A stretch of DNA of 64,000 nucleotides from Candidatus Bathyarchaeia archaeon (GCA_049516875.1 JBEKSS010000001.1:1-64000), one strand, 5' to 3'. Positions 194-51,360 are shown, numbered from the stretch's first letter. Notes: generated by a model not told the origin, from the sequence alone. Numbers and translations are program-made.

Positions 194-210
194 GGATAAA
201 ACTTTACCCC
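194..210 (+). repeat. 17-bp motif GGATAAAACTTTACCCC (copy 1 of 5)
   Basis: Identical to 47418-47434 and to the reverse complement of 44048-44064. Confidence 0.9.
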
Positions 211-40878: not shown

Positions 40879-43800
40879 ATGGAGTTTTTGAAAAAAATCG
40901 AGGAAAAATGGCAGAAAAACTGGGAAAAAGCCAGAATCTTCGAGACTGATCCAGACCCGTCCAAGCCCAAGTGTTTCATCACCGTAGCCTATCCCTACCC
41001 CAATTCGCCTCAGCACATCGGCCACGGAAGAACCTACACCATGGCAGACGTCCACGCACGGTACATGCGAATGCGCGGCTACAACACGCTACTGCCTATG
41101 GCCTTCCACTACACGGGTACGCCCGTACTGGCAATGGCCAAACGCCTCGCAGACAATGATAAGGACCTAATCAGCGACTTCGTTAACGTGTACAAAATCC
41201 CAGAACAGAAACTAGAAGAGCTCACGGAACCCATCGCTATGGCCCGTTACTTCCACCAAGAAATCAAAACTGGCATGAAAGAAATAGGCTTCTCAATCGA
41301 CTGGAGACGTGAATTCACCACCGTAGACCCGCATTATAACCGCTTCGTAGAATGGCAATTCGAAAAACTGCGCCAAAACGGATACATCACGCAAGGAAGC
41401 CACCCAGTGGGCTGGTGCCCCAAAGACGGAAACCCAGTCGGCATGCACGACACCGCAGGCGATGTTGAACCAGAAATAGGCGAGTTCACACTCATAAAAT
41501 TCACAAAAGACAACATCGTCTATCCAGCCGCTACACTGAGACCTGAAACAATCTTCGGCGTCACAAACATCTGGCTAAACCCCAGCACAAAATACGCCAA
41601 AGCCACGATCGACGGCGAACCATGGATAATCAGCCAAGAAAGCGCCGAAAAACTCGCCAACCAAAACCGAAAAGTCAAAGTCCAAGAAACCTTTGAAGGC
41701 AGACAGCTCATAGGAAAACACGTTCAAAACCCAGCTACAGGAAGAGAAATCCCAATACTCCCAGCAGACTTCGTAGACCCTAAGAACGCCACAGGTGTCG
41801 TCATGTCAGTCCCAGGACACGCCCCATACGACTACATCGCCCTAGAAAACATAAAGAAAGAACCGCAGAAGCTGAAACAGTACGGAATAACAGCCGAAGA
41901 CATAAACACGATCCAGCCCATCTCGCTCATCGAAGTCAAAGAATACTCGGACATTCCAGCAGCAGACGTAGTAAAGAAAATGAGCATCAAAGAACAGACA
42001 GACTCGAAGCTGGAGGACGCCACGAAAGAGGTCTACAGGCACGAGTTCCACAACGGAAAAATGAAAGCCAACACAGGCAAGTACGCCGGCATGACCGTGG
42101 CTGAAGCAAAAGACAGAGTCAAACAGGACCTAATCCGGGAAGAAAAAGCCACAACCATGTACGAACTGCTTAACAGACCCGTCTTCTGCCGCTGCAAAAC
42201 AGAGTGCATCGTCAAGATAGTCCAAGACCAATGGTTCATCGACTACGGCAAACCCGAGTGGAAGGCCTTAGCACACAAGAACTTGGACATGATGGAAATA
42301 CTGCCCGAAGAAGTACGACTAGAATTCAACAACGTCATCGACTGGCTGCACGAAAGAGCCTGCGCGAGAAAATCAGGCATGGGCACACGCCTACCATGGG
42401 ACAAAGACTGGATCATCGAATCACTCTCAGACTCAACAATCTACATGGCCTACTACACAATAGTCAAACACATAAAACAGCACAAGATCCAGCCAGCCCA
42501 ATTGACCGACGAAACCCTCGACTACATATTTTTAGGCCTTGGAAAACCCGCAGAAATCAGCAGAAAAACGGGCGTAAACACCAAAGTCCTGAATCAGATG
42601 CACGACGAATTCATGTACTTCTATCCGCTGGACAGCAGGCACTCAGGCCGCGAACTCATCCCCAACCACTTCACCTTCATGATATTCAACCACACCGCCA
42701 TATTCCCACAAAACCATTGGCCCCGCCAAATCGTCACCAACGGACACGTCATGATGGAAGGCTCTAAGATGAGCAAATCCTTCGGAAACATCATCCCCCT
42801 ACGCGAAGCCATAACGAAGTTCGGCGCAGACCCAGTAAGACTGAGCGTCTTGTCAACGGCTGAACTGCTTCAAGACTCCGACTTCAGCCCCACAATAGCC
42901 AAATCAATGCGCGACAGACTCGAAAGACTCTACAGATTCGCCTCCGAAACCGCCAAGCCCCCAAGCAAAAAAGCCTCAAAGACGACGTTGACGGCGATGG
43001 ACAGGTGGATGCTCAGCAGACTACACCAGCACATCAGAAACGCAACCGAAGCGATGGACAAACTGGCCGTCCGCAAAGCCATACACACCGTACTCTTCGA
43101 ACTGGATCAAGACTTCCAATGGTACCAAAAACGCATCGCAGATGGAAAGGAAAACCCGAAAAGGAAAGCCGCATCAGCCTACGTTTTTCATGAGGTCTTA
43201 GACGCGCAAACACGGATGCTGGCACCAGTTGCACCGCACACATGCGAAGAAATATGGGAAATGCTAGGCGGAAAAGACTTCATTGCGCGAAGCCCTTGGC
43301 CAACACCCGACGAATCCAAAATAGACGTCAAGGCAGAGGAAAATGAAACCCTCATCGTGAACGTGCTCGAAGATACGCTGAATATCCTTAAAGCGACAGG
43401 CGCAAAACCCGAGAGGATATGCTATTACACGGCTGCCCCATGGAAATGGAAGACGTATATGAAAGCGCTGGAAAAATCCACTTCAGAAAAGATTCTGCAG
43501 AAGGATTTGATGAAACAGCTCATGCAAGAGCCGGAATTGAGGACAAACGCTCACAAAGTAGCCAAGTTCGCAGGTCAAATCGCAGAGGAAATAAACCGAA
43601 CTTCCGAAGAAACAAAACAAAGACGCATACAAACCGGACTTGTAAACGAGACCGAGGCATTAGAAGAAGCACAGAACTTCTTCAAGAAAGAGCTGAACGC
43701 GGAAATCCACGTCTACAACGAAGAAGACGCTGAACGCCACGACCCCAAACAAAGGGCACAACTCGCCAAACCCTACCGCCCAGCCATTTACATAGAATAA
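40879..43800 (+). CDS. leuS: Leucine--tRNA ligase
   Basis: AYPYPNSPQHIGH, ATLRPET, TGVVMSVPGHAPYD, KMSKS. Confidence 0.98.
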   Translation: MEFLKKIEEKWQKNWEKARIFETDPDPSKPKCFITVAYPYPNSPQHIGHGRTYTMADVHARYMRMRGYNTLLPMAFHYTGTPVLAMAKRLADNDKDLISDFVNVYKIPEQKLEELTEPIAMARYFHQEIKTGMKEIGFSIDWRREFTTVDPHYNRFVEWQFEKLRQNGYITQGSHPVGWCPKDGNPVGMHDTAGDVEPEIGEFTLIKFTKDNIVYPAATLRPETIFGVTNIWLNPSTKYAKATIDGEPWIISQESAEKLANQNRKVKVQETFEGRQLIGKHVQNPATGREIPILPADFVDPKNATGVVMSVPGHAPYDYIALENIKKEPQKLKQYGITAEDINTIQPISLIEVKEYSDIPAADVVKKMSIKEQTDSKLEDATKEVYRHEFHNGKMKANTGKYAGMTVAEAKDRVKQDLIREEKATTMYELLNRPVFCRCKTECIVKIVQDQWFIDYGKPEWKALAHKNLDMMEILPEEVRLEFNNVIDWLHERACARKSGMGTRLPWDKDWIIESLSDSTIYMAYYTIVKHIKQHKIQPAQLTDETLDYIFLGLGKPAEISRKTGVNTKVLNQMHDEFMYFYPLDSRHSGRELIPNHFTFMIFNHTAIFPQNHWPRQIVTNGHVMMEGSKMSKSFGNIIPLREAITKFGADPVRLSVLSTAELLQDSDFSPTIAKSMRDRLERLYRFASETAKPPSKKASKTTLTAMDRWMLSRLHQHIRNATEAMDKLAVRKAIHTVLFELDQDFQWYQKRIADGKENPKRKAASAYVFHEVLDAQTRMLAPVAPHTCEEIWEMLGGKDFIARSPWPTPDESKIDVKAEENETLIVNVLEDTLNILKATGAKPERICYYTAAPWKWKTYMKALEKSTSEKILQKDLMKQLMQEPELRTNAHKVAKFAGQIAEEINRTSEETKQRRIQTGLVNETEALEEAQNFFKKELNAEIHVYNEEDAERHDPKQRAQLAKPYRPAIYIE

Positions 43801-43841
43801 AATATATCAACCAAATACCCTTCCTTCTATTGCCCGAAAAA

Positions 43842-43955
43842 GGATCCGTAGCGCAGCATGGATACTCCTTAAGCCATAAAGCGCGTCGGCCTTCTAACGC
43901 GCTAAAAGCCGAAGAAAGCCGAAAGTCCTGGGTTCAAATCCCAGCGGATCCGCCA
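43842..43955 (+). tRNA. tRNA-Arg(UCU) with two introns (D-loop 43864-43879; canonical 37/38 43897-43916), CCA encoded
   Basis: Acceptor GGATCCG/CGGATCC, D stem GCGC/GCGC, anticodon stem TCGGC/GCCGA with CT-TCT-A, T arm CTGGG-TTCAAAT-CCCAG; both introns form 4-bp helices with 3-nt bulges. Confidence 0.93.
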
Positions 43956-44115
43956 CACACCGAGCGAATATGTACCTTGACTACTTGTATTTCCCCCTTT
44001 TTTCCAGAAAGAAGATGAGGAATTGCAGCGTCTAGAATTTTGTTGTTGGGGTAAAGTTTTATCCCAAACACACACACGCGCACTATGTCTGTCTCAGTCT
44101 GTCAGTCTCTCAAGT

Positions 44116-44952
44116 CTATTTTAGTCCTTTCTTTTTACTTAACTCCTGCCATATTTTCAAGCCTCTTCGAATACGTTTTTTTCTGTTCAAATCGGTAATA
44201 ACCGCGAAAGTGCCAATTCGAGGGTCAGGCGAAAGAGTAAATGTTGAGTTCGTTGTTTCAGCCTCTATCTTCATAGCTACAAAGCATTTGTGTGCAAATC
44301 TAACATGAGTCTTAGCGCTCTCCCAAATGATTTGCTTGGGGCTAAACCTTAAGTTGTGCTGATTTTTCCAAATATTAGCAAGCATATTTATGGGATAAGC
44401 TCTTGCGTCAATTTCCAGTTCGATGTCTCGTTTTTTTCTTCTTATCTTAAGCCATTGAAATCCTGATTCAAGATCCCAAGGCAACGGATTCCCAGAAACC
44501 CACTCGTTATTCATAATCTTAGCAGCTAATCGATTTTGCTGATCATAAAGCGTTGCTGAAATCTCTATTCTGTTTTTGTTGATATTCAAAGATAGCAGAT
44601 TCTCACCATCAATTGCCACTAAATCTCCAGTGCCAATTATTTGGCTAGTCCCGACATTAACAATAGGAATATTCTGATTGACTTCTAGCTGCCCTTGAAC
44701 AAACCCTTGTTTAATATTATAGGGATTCGATTTGTAGAATAGTTGTTCTTTCTTAGTCATTACTTTGTGTGTTGCTTTGTAATGACATGGAAAAGGACAA
44801 AGCAGCATGATATCCTCCGGTTTTTTGGATTTTCTTACAATATGGTGATATTGAACTATTGGTTGACCACATTTGCAACACCCAAAACCTGCTTCTTGTC
44901 TGACGATTCTCTTGACAGGAGCGGGTATCTCAGTTCTCTCGCTCATTTTCAA
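44116..44952 (-). CDS. HNH endonuclease domain protein
   Basis: KRIVRQEAGFGCCKCG...QYHHI...DIMLLCP..CH. Confidence 0.82.
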   Translation of the reverse strand: MKMSERTEIPAPVKRIVRQEAGFGCCKCGQPIVQYHHIVRKSKKPEDIMLLCPFPCHYKATHKVMTKKEQLFYKSNPYNIKQGFVQGQLEVNQNIPIVNVGTSQIIGTGDLVAIDGENLLSLNINKNRIEISATLYDQQNRLAAKIMNNEWVSGNPLPWDLESGFQWLKIRRKKRDIELEIDARAYPINMLANIWKNQHNLRFSPKQIIWESAKTHVRFAHKCFVAMKIEAETTNSTFTLSPDPRIGTFAVITDLNRKKRIRRGLKIWQELSKKKGLK

Positions 44953-45111
44953 TCACCTATTTTGGGAATGCGATTCTTGGAATCCACTTCCGTTTTTCAT
45001 TTCTCAAGTATTGAGCTAACAGGGAGGCCTCTTCACAAATCAACGTCTCAACTTCCTGACTTTTACCATATCTAATCCGTGGGATATCAACCCTCATCAA
45101 TAAGTATTCGT

Positions 45112-45363
45112 TCAGATGTCTAAGCAAATCTCTGTGTTCAGTTCACTTAAGTACTGCCTCTTTCCTTTCTTTCTCGTTGAAAGAATCTCTGTCTTCAGAA
45201 CGAAGTCAGACGGTTTGAGCTTCTTACAGTACTGGATCAGAAAGTCGTCTATCAAATAGCGGTACAATTCCATGAAGTCACATATCAGACTCGGCTTGCC
45301 CATTGCGGCAGTGTGCAGAAACCCAAGGTAGGGTTCAAGCTTGGCCTTTATCAATAGCGCACG
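45112..45363 (-). pseudogene. cas1: C-terminal fragment of a solo Cas1 (casposase-like)
   Basis: RALLIKAKLEPYLGFLH...GKPSLICDFMELYRYLIDD matches the Cas1 LDPYLGFLH..R/KPSL..D.ME.FR motif; N-terminal two-thirds absent. Confidence 0.88.
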
Positions 45364-45701
45364 CGCTCTTCCTCCTTGGTTTCCAAAAGTCGCTTGACGC
45401 TCTCTGGAACTTGTCCTTCAATCCAAATGTCTTCAATATCTTTGAACGGCACAAATACAATATCGCCAAAAGTCAAATGCGTGATTTCAGTTGGAGTATT
45501 ATCGAGAGTTCCCTTCACAAGCTGATTTTCAACTTGAACTTCGGAAACCTTGACCCACATATGTTCGACACGTTTACCAGCAGAGAATGCAGATTTCACC
45601 ATATCGGCTTTGAGTAACTGCTCCACAGTGAATTTTCCCTTGTTTGGATAGAGTTTCTCTGAACATTCAGGACAAACATAGAGAATATTGGGATCAGACA
45701 T
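45351..45701 (-). CDS. DUF2314 (YegJ)-like protein with N-terminal CxxC
   Basis: EHMWVKV...GTLDNTP...LTFGD.V.V....IED; GGAG upstream of ATG 45701. Confidence 0.7.
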   Translation of the reverse strand: MSDPNILYVCPECSEKLYPNKGKFTVEQLLKADMVKSAFSAGKRVEHMWVKVSEVQVENQLVKGTLDNTPTEITHLTFGDIVFVPFKDIEDIWIEGQVPESVKRLLETKEEERVRY

Positions 45702-45831
45702 TATTCTCCACTCCAAACGCGCGCGCCCTAAGTATCCCAATTGATTTAACTTATCGTTTATGAATCGGAAATTCAGAACCAGAATTGGGTTTGGGTTTGT
45801 GTGTGTGCGCGCGCTTGCTCTTCCCTTTATC

Positions 45832-46047
45832 TCAATCTCCTTTTCTAAGATTTCTTTTGAACATTTTCTCGATGTTATAATTATCAACCGCTTGAAGACT
45901 TTCTTTTATCAATTCAACTTCTGTCTTTCTAGGGACATAGGAAACACTACCATTAGAATTAATCCAGAAATTGGAATCTTCAACAAAATGCACAACCATC
46001 AATAGGCGACCGTCAGAAGACATACGAACTTCAATTTTCGCTGGCAT
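45832..46047 (-). CDS. Hypothetical protein (71 aa)
   Basis: ATG ORF of natural composition with AT-rich upstream region. Confidence 0.55.
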   Translation of the reverse strand: MPAKIEVRMSSDGRLLMVVHFVEDSNFWINSNGSVSYVPRKTEVELIKESLQAVDNYNIEKMFKRNLRKGD

Positions 46048-46575
46048 GCAAAAATATATTGTGGAAGTGATATTTTTGCGTTGAGTTTTTGATTAACTAC
46101 TGCATCGTTCGCTATTTTTGTATTATCCAACGTTGCATTCGCTAATTCAATAGGCTAAAACAGGTGATATTCACTTCAATAAGTTGAAAAGGTAGCATGT
46201 AACTTCAATCATTTGCTTTGGAATAGTAGATTTTAATGTTGCTAGAAATACTTGGCTCAAATTGGTCAGTTTATGTTGATTTGTTTATCTCAGAAAGGTA
46301 TAGCAAGAGTGGAAGCGTTTCTTGACTCACTACCTTGCGCGTGCTTTTATTTGAAATAACAAATTCGAGAGCCTATTAAGGTTAGAGGATTCTAACTAAG
46401 AGCGCGCGCTGCCATGTATTCATCTTTCCCGATTTTCTATGCTCTTATTCTCCAGATTTGAAGTTTTACAATTACGAAGGGTTTTGGGATTCCTTTAAGC
46501 GCGCCATAAGCCATTTTGAAATGAATGAAAGAATTTATTAATCTGTTGAAATAGAATGGTTCACTGGGAATAGCA

Positions 46576-47034
46576 TTGTCGCAATTACTTCCTCTCGAGA
46601 AATTTCTCTCAATGTTTGAGTCTGATTTGCAAAACACGGTGGCTAACATTGAATGGATGATACCAGAGCGAAAGGATATTTATGGTTTAGTAAGAAACGC
46701 ATGGAAAGAGCTTCAACCGCAATTTGAAACAGCGACAAAAGAGATACGTGAGATTGTATCTACCGATGTTAGCGCGGGCGCGCGCTTTCAAGCTATGGGA
46801 TTATCAGGTTCACAGTTAGAACTAAAGATTAAAGAATACACAAGACGTAGAGAACGACTGCTTAATTTTGATAAGCTTAAGCTATCAAGAATTGCAAGTG
46901 ACGTTTTGAAGAGATTATTAAAAGCGTTATTGACCTCTGCTGACAATATACTTGACACTTTGGCATCAATTTTCCCTCCTATGCAGGCAATCAAGGAATT
47001 CAAGGATACTCTCGTAAGTATAGCGTCAGACTAA
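46576..47034 (+). CDS. Hypothetical helical protein (152 aa)
   Basis: Long ORF in AT-rich region; no motif recognised. Confidence 0.7.
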   Translation: MSQLLPLEKFLSMFESDLQNTVANIEWMIPERKDIYGLVRNAWKELQPQFETATKEIREIVSTDVSAGARFQAMGLSGSQLELKIKEYTRRRERLLNFDKLKLSRIASDVLKRLLKALLTSADNILDTLASIFPPMQAIKEFKDTLVSIASD

Positions 47035-47126
47035 GTGTAGCGCGCGCCAGACTTGAGAGTTGCCGACAAATATAAGACGAACTTCAACAATATGAGAGTG
47101 ATTTCTGCCTATTTGGTGATAGCAAC

Positions 47127-47342
47127 ATGGTCAGCGATACTCTCGTAGGAAAAATAATCAAAATGTCTGGTAACAACCTTACAATAAGGGTTTTTGTTGA
47201 GTCTGGCGAAAAAACAGAATACTATGAGGTAACGCTTCCAGTCAAAGCAGAACTTCTTGACACTGCTGTGTCAAATATCGGCAGGAAGGTTAGTTTCTAC
47301 ACATGGAAGGGCTATATAGACGGTCTCGAAACAGCCTCCTAG
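47127..47342 (+). CDS. Hypothetical small beta-rich (OB-like) protein
   Basis: GGTGA RBS, ATG start, TATAAG upstream. Confidence 0.65.
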   Translation: MVSDTLVGKIIKMSGNNLTIRVFVESGEKTEYYEVTLPVKAELLDTAVSNIGRKVSFYTWKGYIDGLETAS

Positions 47343-47552
47343 CCACTTGCTCTGCGCGCGCAAAATAAAAAATCCAGAAACAGTGTCGTCGTCCGTCGTC
47401 GTAAATATTGTGTGTGTGGATAAAACTTTACCCCCAAACCCAAACCCTGCCGAAGCAGCAAAGAAAAACAGAGACGCAGAAAAATCTGCAAAACCGCTTT
47501 AGATCTTCATCTCTTCAACCTTTAGCGAGCTAGGGGGCAAAACTGGTGATGA

Positions 47553-47699
47553 TTAAAAAGCCTTCAGAGCTTTCATTTGATTAGATAACTTGAGTTTAAT
47601 ACAGTTAGTGCAGACCGTGACAAATACCTTCTCATTAGGAAAACCCACTGCATACGGCACTATTTCTGCTCCACACTTGGGGCACTTCACTTGCGACAT
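47553..47699 (-). CDS. 48-aa Zn-ribbon protein (not in ORF track)
   Basis: MSQVKCPKCGAEIVPYAVGFPNEKVFVTVCTNCIKLKLSNQMKALKAF*; GAGGT RBS. Confidence 0.68.
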   Translation of the reverse strand: MSQVKCPKCGAEIVPYAVGFPNEKVFVTVCTNCIKLKLSNQMKALKAF

Positions 47700-47784
47700 T
47701 CTTCTACCTCAGCTATCCAACTGATCAATCAAATTGAAACGGACACTTAAACGGTATTTCGATCAGCAGAATATTACCAAAAAA

Positions 47785-47931
47785 GCGCGCGCTCGTCCTT
47801 CTCACACACACGCCGTGTGAGTGTGTGTTGTATGGGTAGGTATAGGTAGGTGTAGAGGTAGGAGTTGGCAGTGGCAGTGACCGAGAGTTTGAGTGACTGG
47901 CAGAGCGAGTGACCGTGAAATTGGTTGGTTG
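47785..47931. repeat. Stuttered low-complexity tract
   Basis: GCGCGCGC, CACACACAC, GTGTGAGTGTGTG, repeated GGTAGG, TGGCAGTGGCAG, GAGTGAC x2, TTGGTTGGTTG. Confidence 0.8.
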
Positions 47932-48582
47932 AGGGTGAAGTTTTATCCAATTGACCAAATTTCGGAGTTGCGGAAAAGTTATAGCTGAACCAGTTCAATC
48001 AGCTTCAGTGCGTGTTCACAATTGCTTGAAGGAAAGAATATTAACATGAGGGTTATGGAGAAAGAGGACTTGCCACTATTTGCAGAATGGGTTAACAAGC
48101 CTGAGTTCATTGGTGAATACAATCCTCTGCGACAGATGTCCAGAACAGAGATAGAGAAGGGTTATGAAAAAAGCAGTCTTGAACAAATGGAGTTTATTAT
48201 TGAAAAGAAAGATGGAAATAAAATCGGTTACATATGGCATTTTGCTGCCCATCCTGTAGCAAAACTGTTGGAGATAGGTTATTTCTTAGTTCCAAGCGAG
48301 AGAGGTAAAGGCTACTGTACTGAAGCCGTCAACATTATGGTCGACTACTTGTTTCTCTCAAAAGAAATCATACGTATTCAAGCTCATACTGAACTGAGAA
48401 ATATGGCTTCTCAGAGGGTTTTAGAAAAAGTTGGATTCAAAAAGGAAGGAACAGTTCGCAAATCCTTTTTCAACAGAGGAGAATATAGAGATGCTTGTCT
48501 GTATAGCATCCTGAGAGTGGAATGGAAAGAACCAAGAATACTGACAAGGACCGCTTAAGAAATGGGGATAAGACTTCACCCC
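47932..48582. mobile_element. 651-bp single-gene module bounded by variant inverted repeats
   Basis: AGGGTGAAGTTTTATCC (47932-47948) and GGATAAGACTTCACCCC (48566-48582): 15/17 inverted match, both carry the TGAAG variant. Confidence 0.65.
48022..48558 (+). CDS. GNAT N-acetyltransferase, RimJ/RimL type
   Basis: EIGYFL...RGKGYCTEAV, NMASQRVLEKVGFKKEG. Confidence 0.93.
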   Translation: MLEGKNINMRVMEKEDLPLFAEWVNKPEFIGEYNPLRQMSRTEIEKGYEKSSLEQMEFIIEKKDGNKIGYIWHFAAHPVAKLLEIGYFLVPSERGKGYCTEAVNIMVDYLFLSKEIIRIQAHTELRNMASQRVLEKVGFKKEGTVRKSFFNRGEYRDACLYSILRVEWKEPRILTRTA

Positions 48583-49256: not shown

Positions 49257-49396
49257 GCAGGGTGAATTTGACCCGCCTCTGGGTCTTCTTCAGCATCCCT
49301 CTTTTTTCTATTTTGCGCTTGTATGCTTCTTTTGTCGTACATGAAAGCATGCTCTTGCAAGTCAATTTCCACTTCTAAAGAATGGTAACATTTTAT

Positions 49397-49582
49397 AGCG
49401 CGCATGTGTGTTCCTAAATTGGCCAAAAATGGTTTTTATTCGCCTTTTGTGATTTGGGGACAGTTTTGGACTTCGCATTTGTTCCTGAATTCCTTGCGGC
49501 AACCAGCCTTCTCGAACAAGCAGAAGTGTGCAGAACGGAATTAAAACCATTTTTAACCATTTTCGGAACAGGCATGCGCGCT
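49397..49582. mobile_element. 186-bp MITE-like element with 45-bp imperfect terminal inverted repeats
   Basis: AGCGCGCATGTGTGTTCCTAAATTGGCCAAAAATGGTTTTTATTC vs reverse complement of the right end: 38/45 identical. Confidence 0.75.
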
Positions 49583-49654
49583 GGGCTTGAGCGCCAGTTG
49601 AGTCTATAACCACAAAATTCTTTTGGTGTGAACAACCCTTTGTTTGTCTAGCTG

Positions 49655-51028: not shown

Positions 51029-51360
51029 ACCTGGTAAAATCTTGGCACTCCACTATTGTCGGACGCGTTCACGGAGAACTCAAACAAATCGCAGAAAAAC
51101 TGAAGTCAGAGTTGCGCAGAACTTGACGTTTCTCTTTTGCACGTGTTAGGGGTAGTGTTCTACTGCGGTAATGTTGCTATCGTAGTGGTACAAGGACAAT
51201 GAGCGCTAGAAGCGCGCGAGTTCAGGCATATACGCTACGCGAGTTTGAACAAACGAGTGAGGCCGCATTGATGGTTTTGGCAGCGATGCCGAACGATATG
51301 TAGCGCGCTGTGCTTAGATGCTCACCCCATAAAACACATATCACGTCCGTGAAGGTCAAA

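Follow-up and report, generated by a model that had tools for sequence, protein, structure and literature searches.

The closest described systems to the sequence reported here are integrons, casposons, CRISPR arrays and the direct-repeat motifs of Sulfolobus conjugative plasmids. The attC sites of integrons are conserved in structure and variable in sequence, and act as a folded single strand of 57-141 nt. Casposons are recognized by a full-length Cas1, element-specific terminal inverted repeats (TIRs), a family B DNA polymerase (PolB) and a target site duplication of about 14-15 bp, and CRISPR arrays by short unique spacers set between direct repeats of 23-50 bp. The recombination motifs of the Sulfolobus plasmids were reportedly described originally by Stedman in 2000 and by Greve in 2004. 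Here, we describe an 18 bp near-palindrome, the junction motif, found in a Candidatus Bathyarchaeia archaeon of peat. The window analysed is the first 64,000 nt of contig C1 of its genome (GCA_049516875.1 JBEKSS010000001.1:1-64000; the genome, G000, comprises 2.43 Mb in 20 contigs). The junction motif stands at the seams between accessory gene modules, its two flanks assort independently of each other, and the modules move between species. Its features suggest a novel type of gene-shuffling site, and not the ends of a casposon.

Five sites in the window match the pattern GGATAARACTTYACCCY without mismatch:

194-210 (+): junction motif, fifth copy; the module to its left (1-211) and the module to its right (194-371) each occur alone in other species
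44048-44064 (-): junction motif copy 1, between a tRNA gene and a convergent HNH-like gene
47418-47434 (+): junction motif copy 2, between convergent genes
47932-47948 (-): junction motif copy 3, a T>C variant
48566-48582 (+): junction motif copy 4, 7 nt past the stop codon of a GNAT acetyltransferase gene

Only 0.08 matches would be expected, and five were reached in none of 100 shuffles. A first-pass annotation of the window had located copies 1 to 4 correctly and had overlooked the fifth. Copies 1 and 2 are the same 17-mer, inverted relative to each other; copies 3 and 4 have in common a rare T>C change (ACTTCACCC), to which copy 4 adds an A>G change.

Across G000, the 16-mer GGATAAAACTTTACCC has 23 exact copies, 18 copies with a single mismatch and 17 with two mismatches, against 0, 0 and 3 in the reversed genome that served as the control; at up to one mismatch there are thus 41 copies in the genome and none in the control. 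These copies are clustered in about a dozen regions. We also scanned 40 related Bathyarchaeia genomes (labelled G001 onwards, with Cn for a contig within a genome and Lnnn for fetched loci and metagenome contigs). The motif was present in all four congeners (4-30 copies) and in 13 of 24 genomes of the family, while genomes from other families of the order had 0-1 copies. An exact-match scan with one genome per species returned many Bathyarchaeia or Bathyarchaeota records, often with several copies per 8 kb; matches in bacterial records were single, which is the chance level for a 16-mer in that much DNA. The first-pass annotation had proposed scanning the genome and its relatives, as a test of whether the motif derives from casposon ends: the motif is genome-wide and lineage-wide, and its copies are not a private pair of casposon ends. 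Two contigs in IMG/VR (L137 and L139) hold 2-3 copies; their 10 open reading frames (ORFs) gave only MEDS/DUF7347 and a type I restriction-modification specificity domain, and so no virus hallmarks. Full-text literature searches, with subscription journals and supplementary files outside their scope, returned no description of the motif.

The behaviour of the sequences on either side of the motif provides the central evidence. For every one of the 41 copies in G000, the 250 nt to its left and the 250 nt to its right were compared with the genome and with all fetched foreign loci, a match being defined as crossing if it spanned the motif with 50 nt on both sides. No match crossed: of 47 outside matches, 23 stopped at the motif from the left and 24 started on its right, with 27 of the 41 copies having any outside match. 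A wider set of 263 copies gave 45 crossing matches, and the 40 inspected came from the same contig fetched twice or from unrelated viral contigs; starts and ends of matches were piled up at the motif edges. The one-sided matches are 90-98% identical between species; the leucyl-tRNA synthetase (LeuRS) gene is 83-85% identical. Individual loci illustrate the pattern. At the fifth window copy, module 1-211 is 96% identical in G002:C1 and module 194-371 is 95-98% identical in G004:C39 and G001:C6, both modules including the motif. At C2:15064, a conserved flank stops 2-4 nt past a degenerate motif in three genomes and is followed by different inserts, and one copy in G002 consists of the right half of the motif only, joined to foreign DNA. 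Neighbouring copies lie 318-5104 bp apart (one 42 bp doublet was set aside). The proposal that the motif delimits gene-sized modules, here of 0.3-5 kb, holds, as do the predictions that modules would differ in presence and context between genomes and that the outcome, cassette-like and polymorphic, would resemble that of integrons.

In the core of the motif, GGGATAAAACTTTACCCC, two 8 bp half-sites in inverted orientation flank an AC that is not itself palindromic. The adjoining 25 nt are rich in G and T on the 5′ side (G 0.30, T 0.35, C 0.13) and in C and A on the 3′ side (C 0.37, A 0.33, G 0.11); farther out, composition is ordinary. These arms are usually simple repeats, for example (GGTT)n, (TTTGGG)n or (GT)n and their complements. 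Of 31 typed sites, only 6 had the same repeat type in both arms, where chance would give 41%; the facing arms of a module were of the same type in 9 of 18 cases against the same 41%, which is no signal, and we rejected the idea that the arms are module-specific inverted ends. Folds of 76 nt around the 41 copies were barely more stable than those of shuffled sequences (mean z -0.6; 12% below -2), making a folded single strand unlikely as the active form; a long hairpin or attC-like fold was rejected on these weak z-scores.

A sister palindrome, GGATTAAAWTTTAATCC, is found at 18 sites in G020 and 15 in G013, both of which are without the junction motif, and nowhere in the motif's own genus. It bears the same kind of arms, and lies beside the junction motif in G023 (G023:C10:207755-209808). 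To judge from the sequences, the existence of a discrete sister version may be counted as a sign of protein-like specificity.

Relative to genes, the 56 classifiable sites comprised 29 tandem, 14 divergent and 13 convergent positions, in proportions that match the background of all intergenic regions (1153, 449 and 419, respectively); in the window, two of the five copies are flanked by convergent genes. Distances to gene starts and stops are scattered from 7 to more than 1000 nt. The motif is thus neither a promoter nor a terminator, and the fixed promoter position by which a transcription-factor site might have been recognized was not seen. Among 79 pairs of neighbouring copies within 6 kb of each other, 49 point in the same direction and 30 in opposite directions (62% versus 38%), so that inward-facing pairs, which had been suggested as the building principle, are not the rule. 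The genes beside the motif are diverse: 141 ORFs represented 135 families in Pfam, and included seven GNAT acetyltransferases, six S-adenosylmethionine-dependent methyltransferases and two tyrosine integrases.

The four closely spaced copies of the window lie downstream of a tRNA gene, and the region contains the following features:

43842-43955 (+): tRNA-Arg(TCT), with a D-loop insert at 43865-43880 (16 nt), and an anticodon-loop intron at 43897-43916 (20 nt); CCA is encoded, and the variable region is anchored by this gene
44116-44952 (-): gene for a 278-aa HNH-signature-like protein, a likeness found in the ESM Atlas only
44972-45363 (-): broken C-terminal remnant of a Cas1-solo gene, about residues 209-338; Pfam Cas_Cas1 (positions 209-282, E 4e-14) matches at 45112-45354
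45351-45695 (-): DUF2314 protein gene (E 4e-11), module 1 cargo
46576-47342 (+): two orphan ORFs (152 aa and 71 aa), module 1 cargo, with no family and no paralogue
47414-47792 (-): mobile 379 bp module with a 48-aa zinc-ribbon gene (47553-47699), bounded by the motif at one end and GCGCGC at the other
47784-47931 (no strand): arm module of low complexity and low G content, bounded by GCGCGC and motif copy 3; it recurs beside other motif copies
47972-47989 (+): promoter-like box GGAAAAGTTATAGCTGAA (also given as GGAAAAGTTATAGC), resembling a TFB-recognition element and TATA box (BRE/TATA) by eye
48022-48558 (+): GNAT acetyltransferase cassette of a multi-copy family (Pfam Acetyltransf_3, E 8e-23)

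The tRNA gene is real: it was missed by ARAGORN and by Rfam at gathering score, its 16-nt D-loop insert being non-canonical, and ARAGORN calls tRNA-Arg(TCT) once the insert is removed in a script. LeuRS and tRNA-Arg are syntenic in G002, G003 and G004. From the tRNA to the next conserved gene (window position 51360) the distance is 7.4 kb in the window and 2.1-2.4 kb in these three genomes, where the interval holds unrelated, motif-free genes; more distant metagenome contigs keep homology to the window only up to about position 44014. The first-pass annotation had called for a comparison of filled and empty sites downstream of tRNA-Arg; the locus was found to hold different genes in each congener. 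The tRNA-Arg locus is a hot spot that is filled differently in each species, and here it holds three motif-bounded modules. Sequencing runs X5, X7 and X8 contain contigs of a far more abundant strain, about 98% identical, that cover 43243-44067 and 47905 onwards; the interval 44067-47400 is represented in these runs by low-depth contigs only, identical to the window. As no contig joins across the interval, it is a coverage gap and should not be taken to show an empty site. Several joints with short sides in the same contigs (44014>47972, 47444>47967 and 47931>44045 among them) probably derive from paralogous loci or from other species, and were left out of the analysis. A classical tRNA-targeting integrase element was rejected, because G000 has no second copy of the tRNA 3′ end. 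Elsewhere, a degenerate tRNA-Arg 3′ end with 60 nt of downstream sequence lies beside GNAT paralogues, far from the real tRNA (G004:C10:73815-73900 in L173, and L176, L177 and L184); this displaced fragment looks like the remnant of an old attachment site.

The first motif pair (44048/47418) encloses the HNH-like gene, the Cas1 remnant and the orphan ORFs, and the second pair (47932/48566) brackets the single GNAT gene, both as originally annotated. The assignment of the HNH gene stands in part: the 278-aa protein resembles HNH-signature clusters in the ESM Atlas (score 0.97, TM 0.86) and has no Pfam or NCBIfam match, and the gene is unique in G000 and the fetched loci (tblastn returned only itself). 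The Cas1 fragment is genuine and comprises the C-terminal part only; it shows 61% and 48% identity to the full-length Cas1 of contig C9, and contains one internal TGA. The orphan ORFs gave no family in the Pfam and NCBIfam scans, and a search for their paralogues was empty.

In G004:C12, G002:C2 and G004:C17, the 379 bp zinc-ribbon module is 93-96% identical, compared with about 84% for LeuRS. The arm module at 47784-47931 is 90% identical to C9:104875-105024, 83% to C9:89262-89421 and 84% to a sequence in G004:C22. Paralogues of the GNAT protein are found at 62-80% identity, and the DNA of 47968-48559 is 83% identical in G004:C10; the motif is likewise placed after a GNAT homologue in L014. 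The box GGAAAAGTTATAGCTGAA, 23 nt from motif copy 3 and 32 nt upstream of the GNAT start (TTG at 48022), also occurs upstream of GNAT, SnoaL-like, methyltransferase and glyoxalase-like genes in relatives, and may be a cassette promoter. The window contains two distinct tiny zinc-ribbon genes, at 266-433 (56 aa) and 47553-47699 (48 aa); these are the most widely shared motif-adjacent modules, with 93-99% DNA identity across species, and their products are candidate small DNA-binding factors.

Our data are consistent with a model, held with middling confidence, in which the motif is a double-stranded, protein-recognized recombination junction that joins and exchanges accessory gene modules with an outcome like that of integrons. 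The site, at which modules of 0.3-5 kb, many with their own promoter, would be joined and exchanged, is found in integrated elements and variable regions of a single Bathyarchaeia family. The core would be recognized by a dimeric DNA-binding protein dedicated to recombination, and a crossover at or beside it would swap, insert or delete whatever adjoins either side. The four copies downstream of tRNA-Arg would then mark three added modules: a decayed Cas1-solo remnant, a zinc-ribbon mini-module and a GNAT cassette.

Several observations weigh against this model. No recombinase is consistently found beside the motif, with only two tyrosine integrases among the 141 ORFs next to it. No serine recombinase turned up in motif-bearing genomes (PF00239 was detected only in G007 among 41 genomes, with positive controls in 12 of 14), and a serine-recombinase crossover site was rejected accordingly. 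Neighbouring copies are only 62% concordant in orientation, unlike integron or CRISPR arrays, and neither an excision circle nor a clean empty site with a single motif was seen. A crossover within sequence common to all copies cannot be located by BLAST, and the breaks seen at the motif would be just as compatible with modules that each bring the motif along to signal their own end. The microsatellite arms, moreover, are unexplained by a junction site. A variant in which copies are hybrid attL/attR sites was discarded, because neither half occurs as a perfect palindrome anywhere in G000 or in any of the fetched loci.

Ordinary homologous recombination on the shared stretch of 18-40 bp would produce the same pattern, including its one-sided homology, and the motif could in that case be a passive linker served by no dedicated enzyme, as has been proposed for the boundary sequences of mosaic phages. 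The 30-50 bp of similarity that core and arms provide together, and the lack of a consistent recombinase, agree with such a linker. However, a linker needs neither a near-palindromic form, nor the exactness of 23 of 58 copies across genera, nor discrete sister versions in different genomes, and arms of the same type occur on one site less often than by chance (6 of 31 versus 41%); we regard this explanation as unlikely. A protein could also bind the motif for regulation, each module bringing its own operator, silencer or insulator and recombination merely falling between genes. An 18 bp palindrome has the size bound by dimeric regulators, the copy at the GNAT cassette lies 23 nt upstream of the promoter-like box, and sister motifs would fit the co-evolution of a protein and its site. 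Against this, 13 of 56 sites (two of five in the window) lie between convergent genes in a distribution equal to background, distances to starts and stops are scattered, and the motif is more conserved than operators usually are; we consider a regulatory site distinctly unlikely. The proposal that fits worst, and that we judge highly improbable, is a selfish short repeat spreading into intergenic DNA, resembling repetitive extragenic palindromes (REPs) and bacterial interspersed mosaic elements (BIMEs) or a miniature inverted-repeat transposable element (MITE). Although the copies are intergenic, palindromic, numerous and patchily distributed, and include close inverted doublets, none of the 41 shares both flanks with another, so that no larger unit with two copied ends moves, and the hairpins are weak. 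Y1/REP-associated tyrosine transposases (PF01797) gave no match in the motif-rich genomes G000, G003, G021 and G023, with positive controls in 6 of 14 genomes, and were rejected as the source of the copies.

The remaining alternative returns to Cas1, and is the descendant of the first-pass annotation's central claim that the motif derives from casposon ends. A non-CRISPR Cas1 homologue (Cas1-solo) encoded on polB-less elements might integrate gene-sized DNA at the 18 bp near-palindrome and duplicate the site, generating direct repeats of 23-26 nt and hence repeat arrays with gene-sized inserts. In G000, Cas1-solo is represented by one full-length gene (C9:118082-119107) and seven fragments, and a Cas1-fragment/Cas2 remnant lies separately at C1:358 kb; Bathyarchaeia encode a large family of such proteins (1984 at E<=1e-10), and the C9 protein is distant from solved Cas1 structures (E 3e-12) and from the casposase 6OPM (E 5e-9). 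Its conserved neighbours encode a protein like archaeo-eukaryotic primases (AEP-like; a weak match, below cut-off), an ATPase of about 300 aa (AAA_25 in G000) and a partner of 107-121 aa. At four loci (G023, G003, G021:C14 and G004:C1) this core lies between two direct motif copies, with flanking repeats of 26 nt in G023 (100% identical) and 23 nt in G003 (96%). No PolB, tyrosine recombinase or serine recombinase family was found by Pfam in the 26 ORFs scanned, which represent part of the ORFs of the G000:C9, G023, G021:C14 and G003 loci, G004:C1 being excluded.

Genome content points the same way, faintly. Among 11 genomes with at least three motif copies, five encode a full-length Cas1-solo at >=54% identity and three more have fragments; among 30 genomes with at most two copies, two (G008 and G012) have a homologue at >=54% and one (G030) at 45%. 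This co-occurrence is weak evidence, because the genomes are related and both features are enriched in element-rich regions. Furthermore, 8 of 13 Cas1-solo loci have no junction motif within 10 kb and only 5 of 13 do; four of the motif-less loci were scanned for long direct repeats, with an unrelated 18-nt pair in G021:C24 and none in the other three. G002 has 20 motif copies yet only broken pieces of Cas1, the window itself has only a fragment, and site duplication cannot make the 38% of neighbour pairs that are inverted. The expected association with an intact solo cas1 was positive but confounded at the level of genomes, and at the level of loci was seen in a minority.

A derivation of the motif from casposons is not supported, given that the site is genome-wide, that so many neighbours are inverted, that no PolB was found and that few Cas1-solo loci are near a motif. 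Within 44065-47417, no ORF of the size or family of a family B DNA polymerase was present. Protein-primed PolB (PF03175) was not found in G000, a search of unproven sensitivity (controls positive in 0 of 14 genomes) with PF00136 outside it; it exceeded the cut-off in one of 41 related genomes, away from the cas1 locus, and was rejected as a gene of the element. The Cas1 of module 1 comprises about residues 209-338 with an internal stop; the 17-nt inverted pair is real, and the same sequence occurs at >=41 other places, bounding unrelated modules; and the outer flanks of 44048 and 47434 are unrelated, showing no target duplication. The caveat in the first-pass annotation that this is no canonical casposon, having neither polB nor a target duplication, was well founded. 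Its Cas1 link survives in a weaker, unproven form: Cas1-solo and motif tend to share genomes, and four elements lie between direct copies. That Cas1-solo is the acting protein strikes us as very doubtful. If true, the runs of repeats separated by genes would be a living counterpart of the proposed step from casposon insertion to CRISPR spacer capture, sister motifs in other genera would mark co-evolving Cas1 specificities, and the proposed origin of CRISPR adaptation from Cas1 integrases would be directly testable.

The Cas1-solo genes are of interest in their own right. They occur on integrated elements of 6-8 kb (G000:C9:116000-126832 in L192, G023:C10, G003:C1, G021:C14 and G004:C1) together with the partner, which belongs to no family, the ATPase and the AEP-like protein, and the G000 element sits among AbiE and AbiV/HEPN genes. 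Short fragments, mostly of the C-terminal 100-130 residues, are scattered in G000 (for example C1:353285, C15:4533, C6:105396, C12:6893 and C8:19946) and in many relatives, and a good share of them are <=2 kb from the junction motif or its sister. In IMG/VR, scanning with a single Cas1-solo protein gave no match, and scanning with an alignment gave one locus with a fragment, L229, which lacks the motif. The solo cas1 has no cas2 next to it, and our own k-mer scan detected no CRISPR array in G000, such arrays often being unassembled in metagenome-assembled genomes.

A second recurrent sequence, GCGCGC, was encountered alongside the motif. It occurs 1412 times in G000, 65% of them outside ORFs of >=80 aa, compared with 162-487 occurrences and 7-23% outside for other G+C hexamers, and GCGCGCGC occurs 447 times. 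Only about 20% of intergenic regions contain GCGCGC, and its density is doubled in those 10-kb bins where the junction motif occurs. Examples in the window are at 45719, 46402, 47040, 47354 and 47785, and several module homologies end exactly there. One further feature is associated with it:

49396-49583 (no strand): MITE of about 176 bp whose inverted ends start at GCGCGC; numerous in each of the four congeners and outside the motif system

Contigs from runs X5, X7 and X8 join 49399 to 49576, with the MITE absent, and by eye this empty site reads as a single GCGCGC-containing palindrome, for which reason GCGCGC looks like the insertion target of the MITE, duplicated on insertion.

Bathyarchaeia are among the most abundant archaea of peat and sediments, and their gene trading is poorly known. 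The junction motif offers a sequence handle on their variable gene pool, by which cassettes can be listed, transfer between species traced and the acting protein sought.

How, then, does the motif compare with the known systems? Its modules resemble integron cassettes in being gene-sized, often one-gene units with a recombination-type site close to the stop codon, in a cargo rich in acetyltransferases and methyltransferases, and in arrays that vary between relatives. Unlike attC, the motif is conserved in sequence and folds weakly (as judged from the 76-nt folds); its orientation is mixed (49 same versus 30 opposite), the GNAT unit has a promoter-like box inside it whereas integron cassettes are mostly promoterless, and motif arrays occur at many loci. 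Integrons have an IntI-type integrase next to the array, with attI and Pc; the 10 PF00589 matches of G000 all fall outside the window, and no IntI-type enzyme accompanies the arrays. A term search within a paper on archaeal integrons gave no mention of Bathyarchaeia (PMC9668308).

Module 1 shares with casposons a non-CRISPR Cas1 homologue, a nearby HNH-like gene, a position next to a tRNA and a surrounding pair of inverted repeats, but differs in having only a Cas1 fragment, no PolB found, no visible target duplication and a 'TIR' that is genome-wide; in the related Cas1-solo elements, the place of a polymerase is taken by an AEP-like protein and an ATPase. With CRISPR arrays, the motif has in common partly palindromic repeats (motif and arm together measure about 26 nt), runs in the same orientation, such as six in L045, and a Cas1 family in the same genomes; its spacing is that of genes (0.3-5 kb versus 25-50 bp), 38% of neighbours are inverted, and there is no leader. 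The motif thus belongs with neither integrons, casposons, CRISPR arrays nor REPs. Its likeness to the direct-repeat motifs of Sulfolobus conjugative plasmids is that of a short conserved motif in archaeal mobile DNA which is the site of rearrangements and deletions. The junction motif differs from these in lineage and sequence and is also chromosomal, and it is distinguished by its microsatellite arms, its use of both orientations and the exchange of its modules between species.

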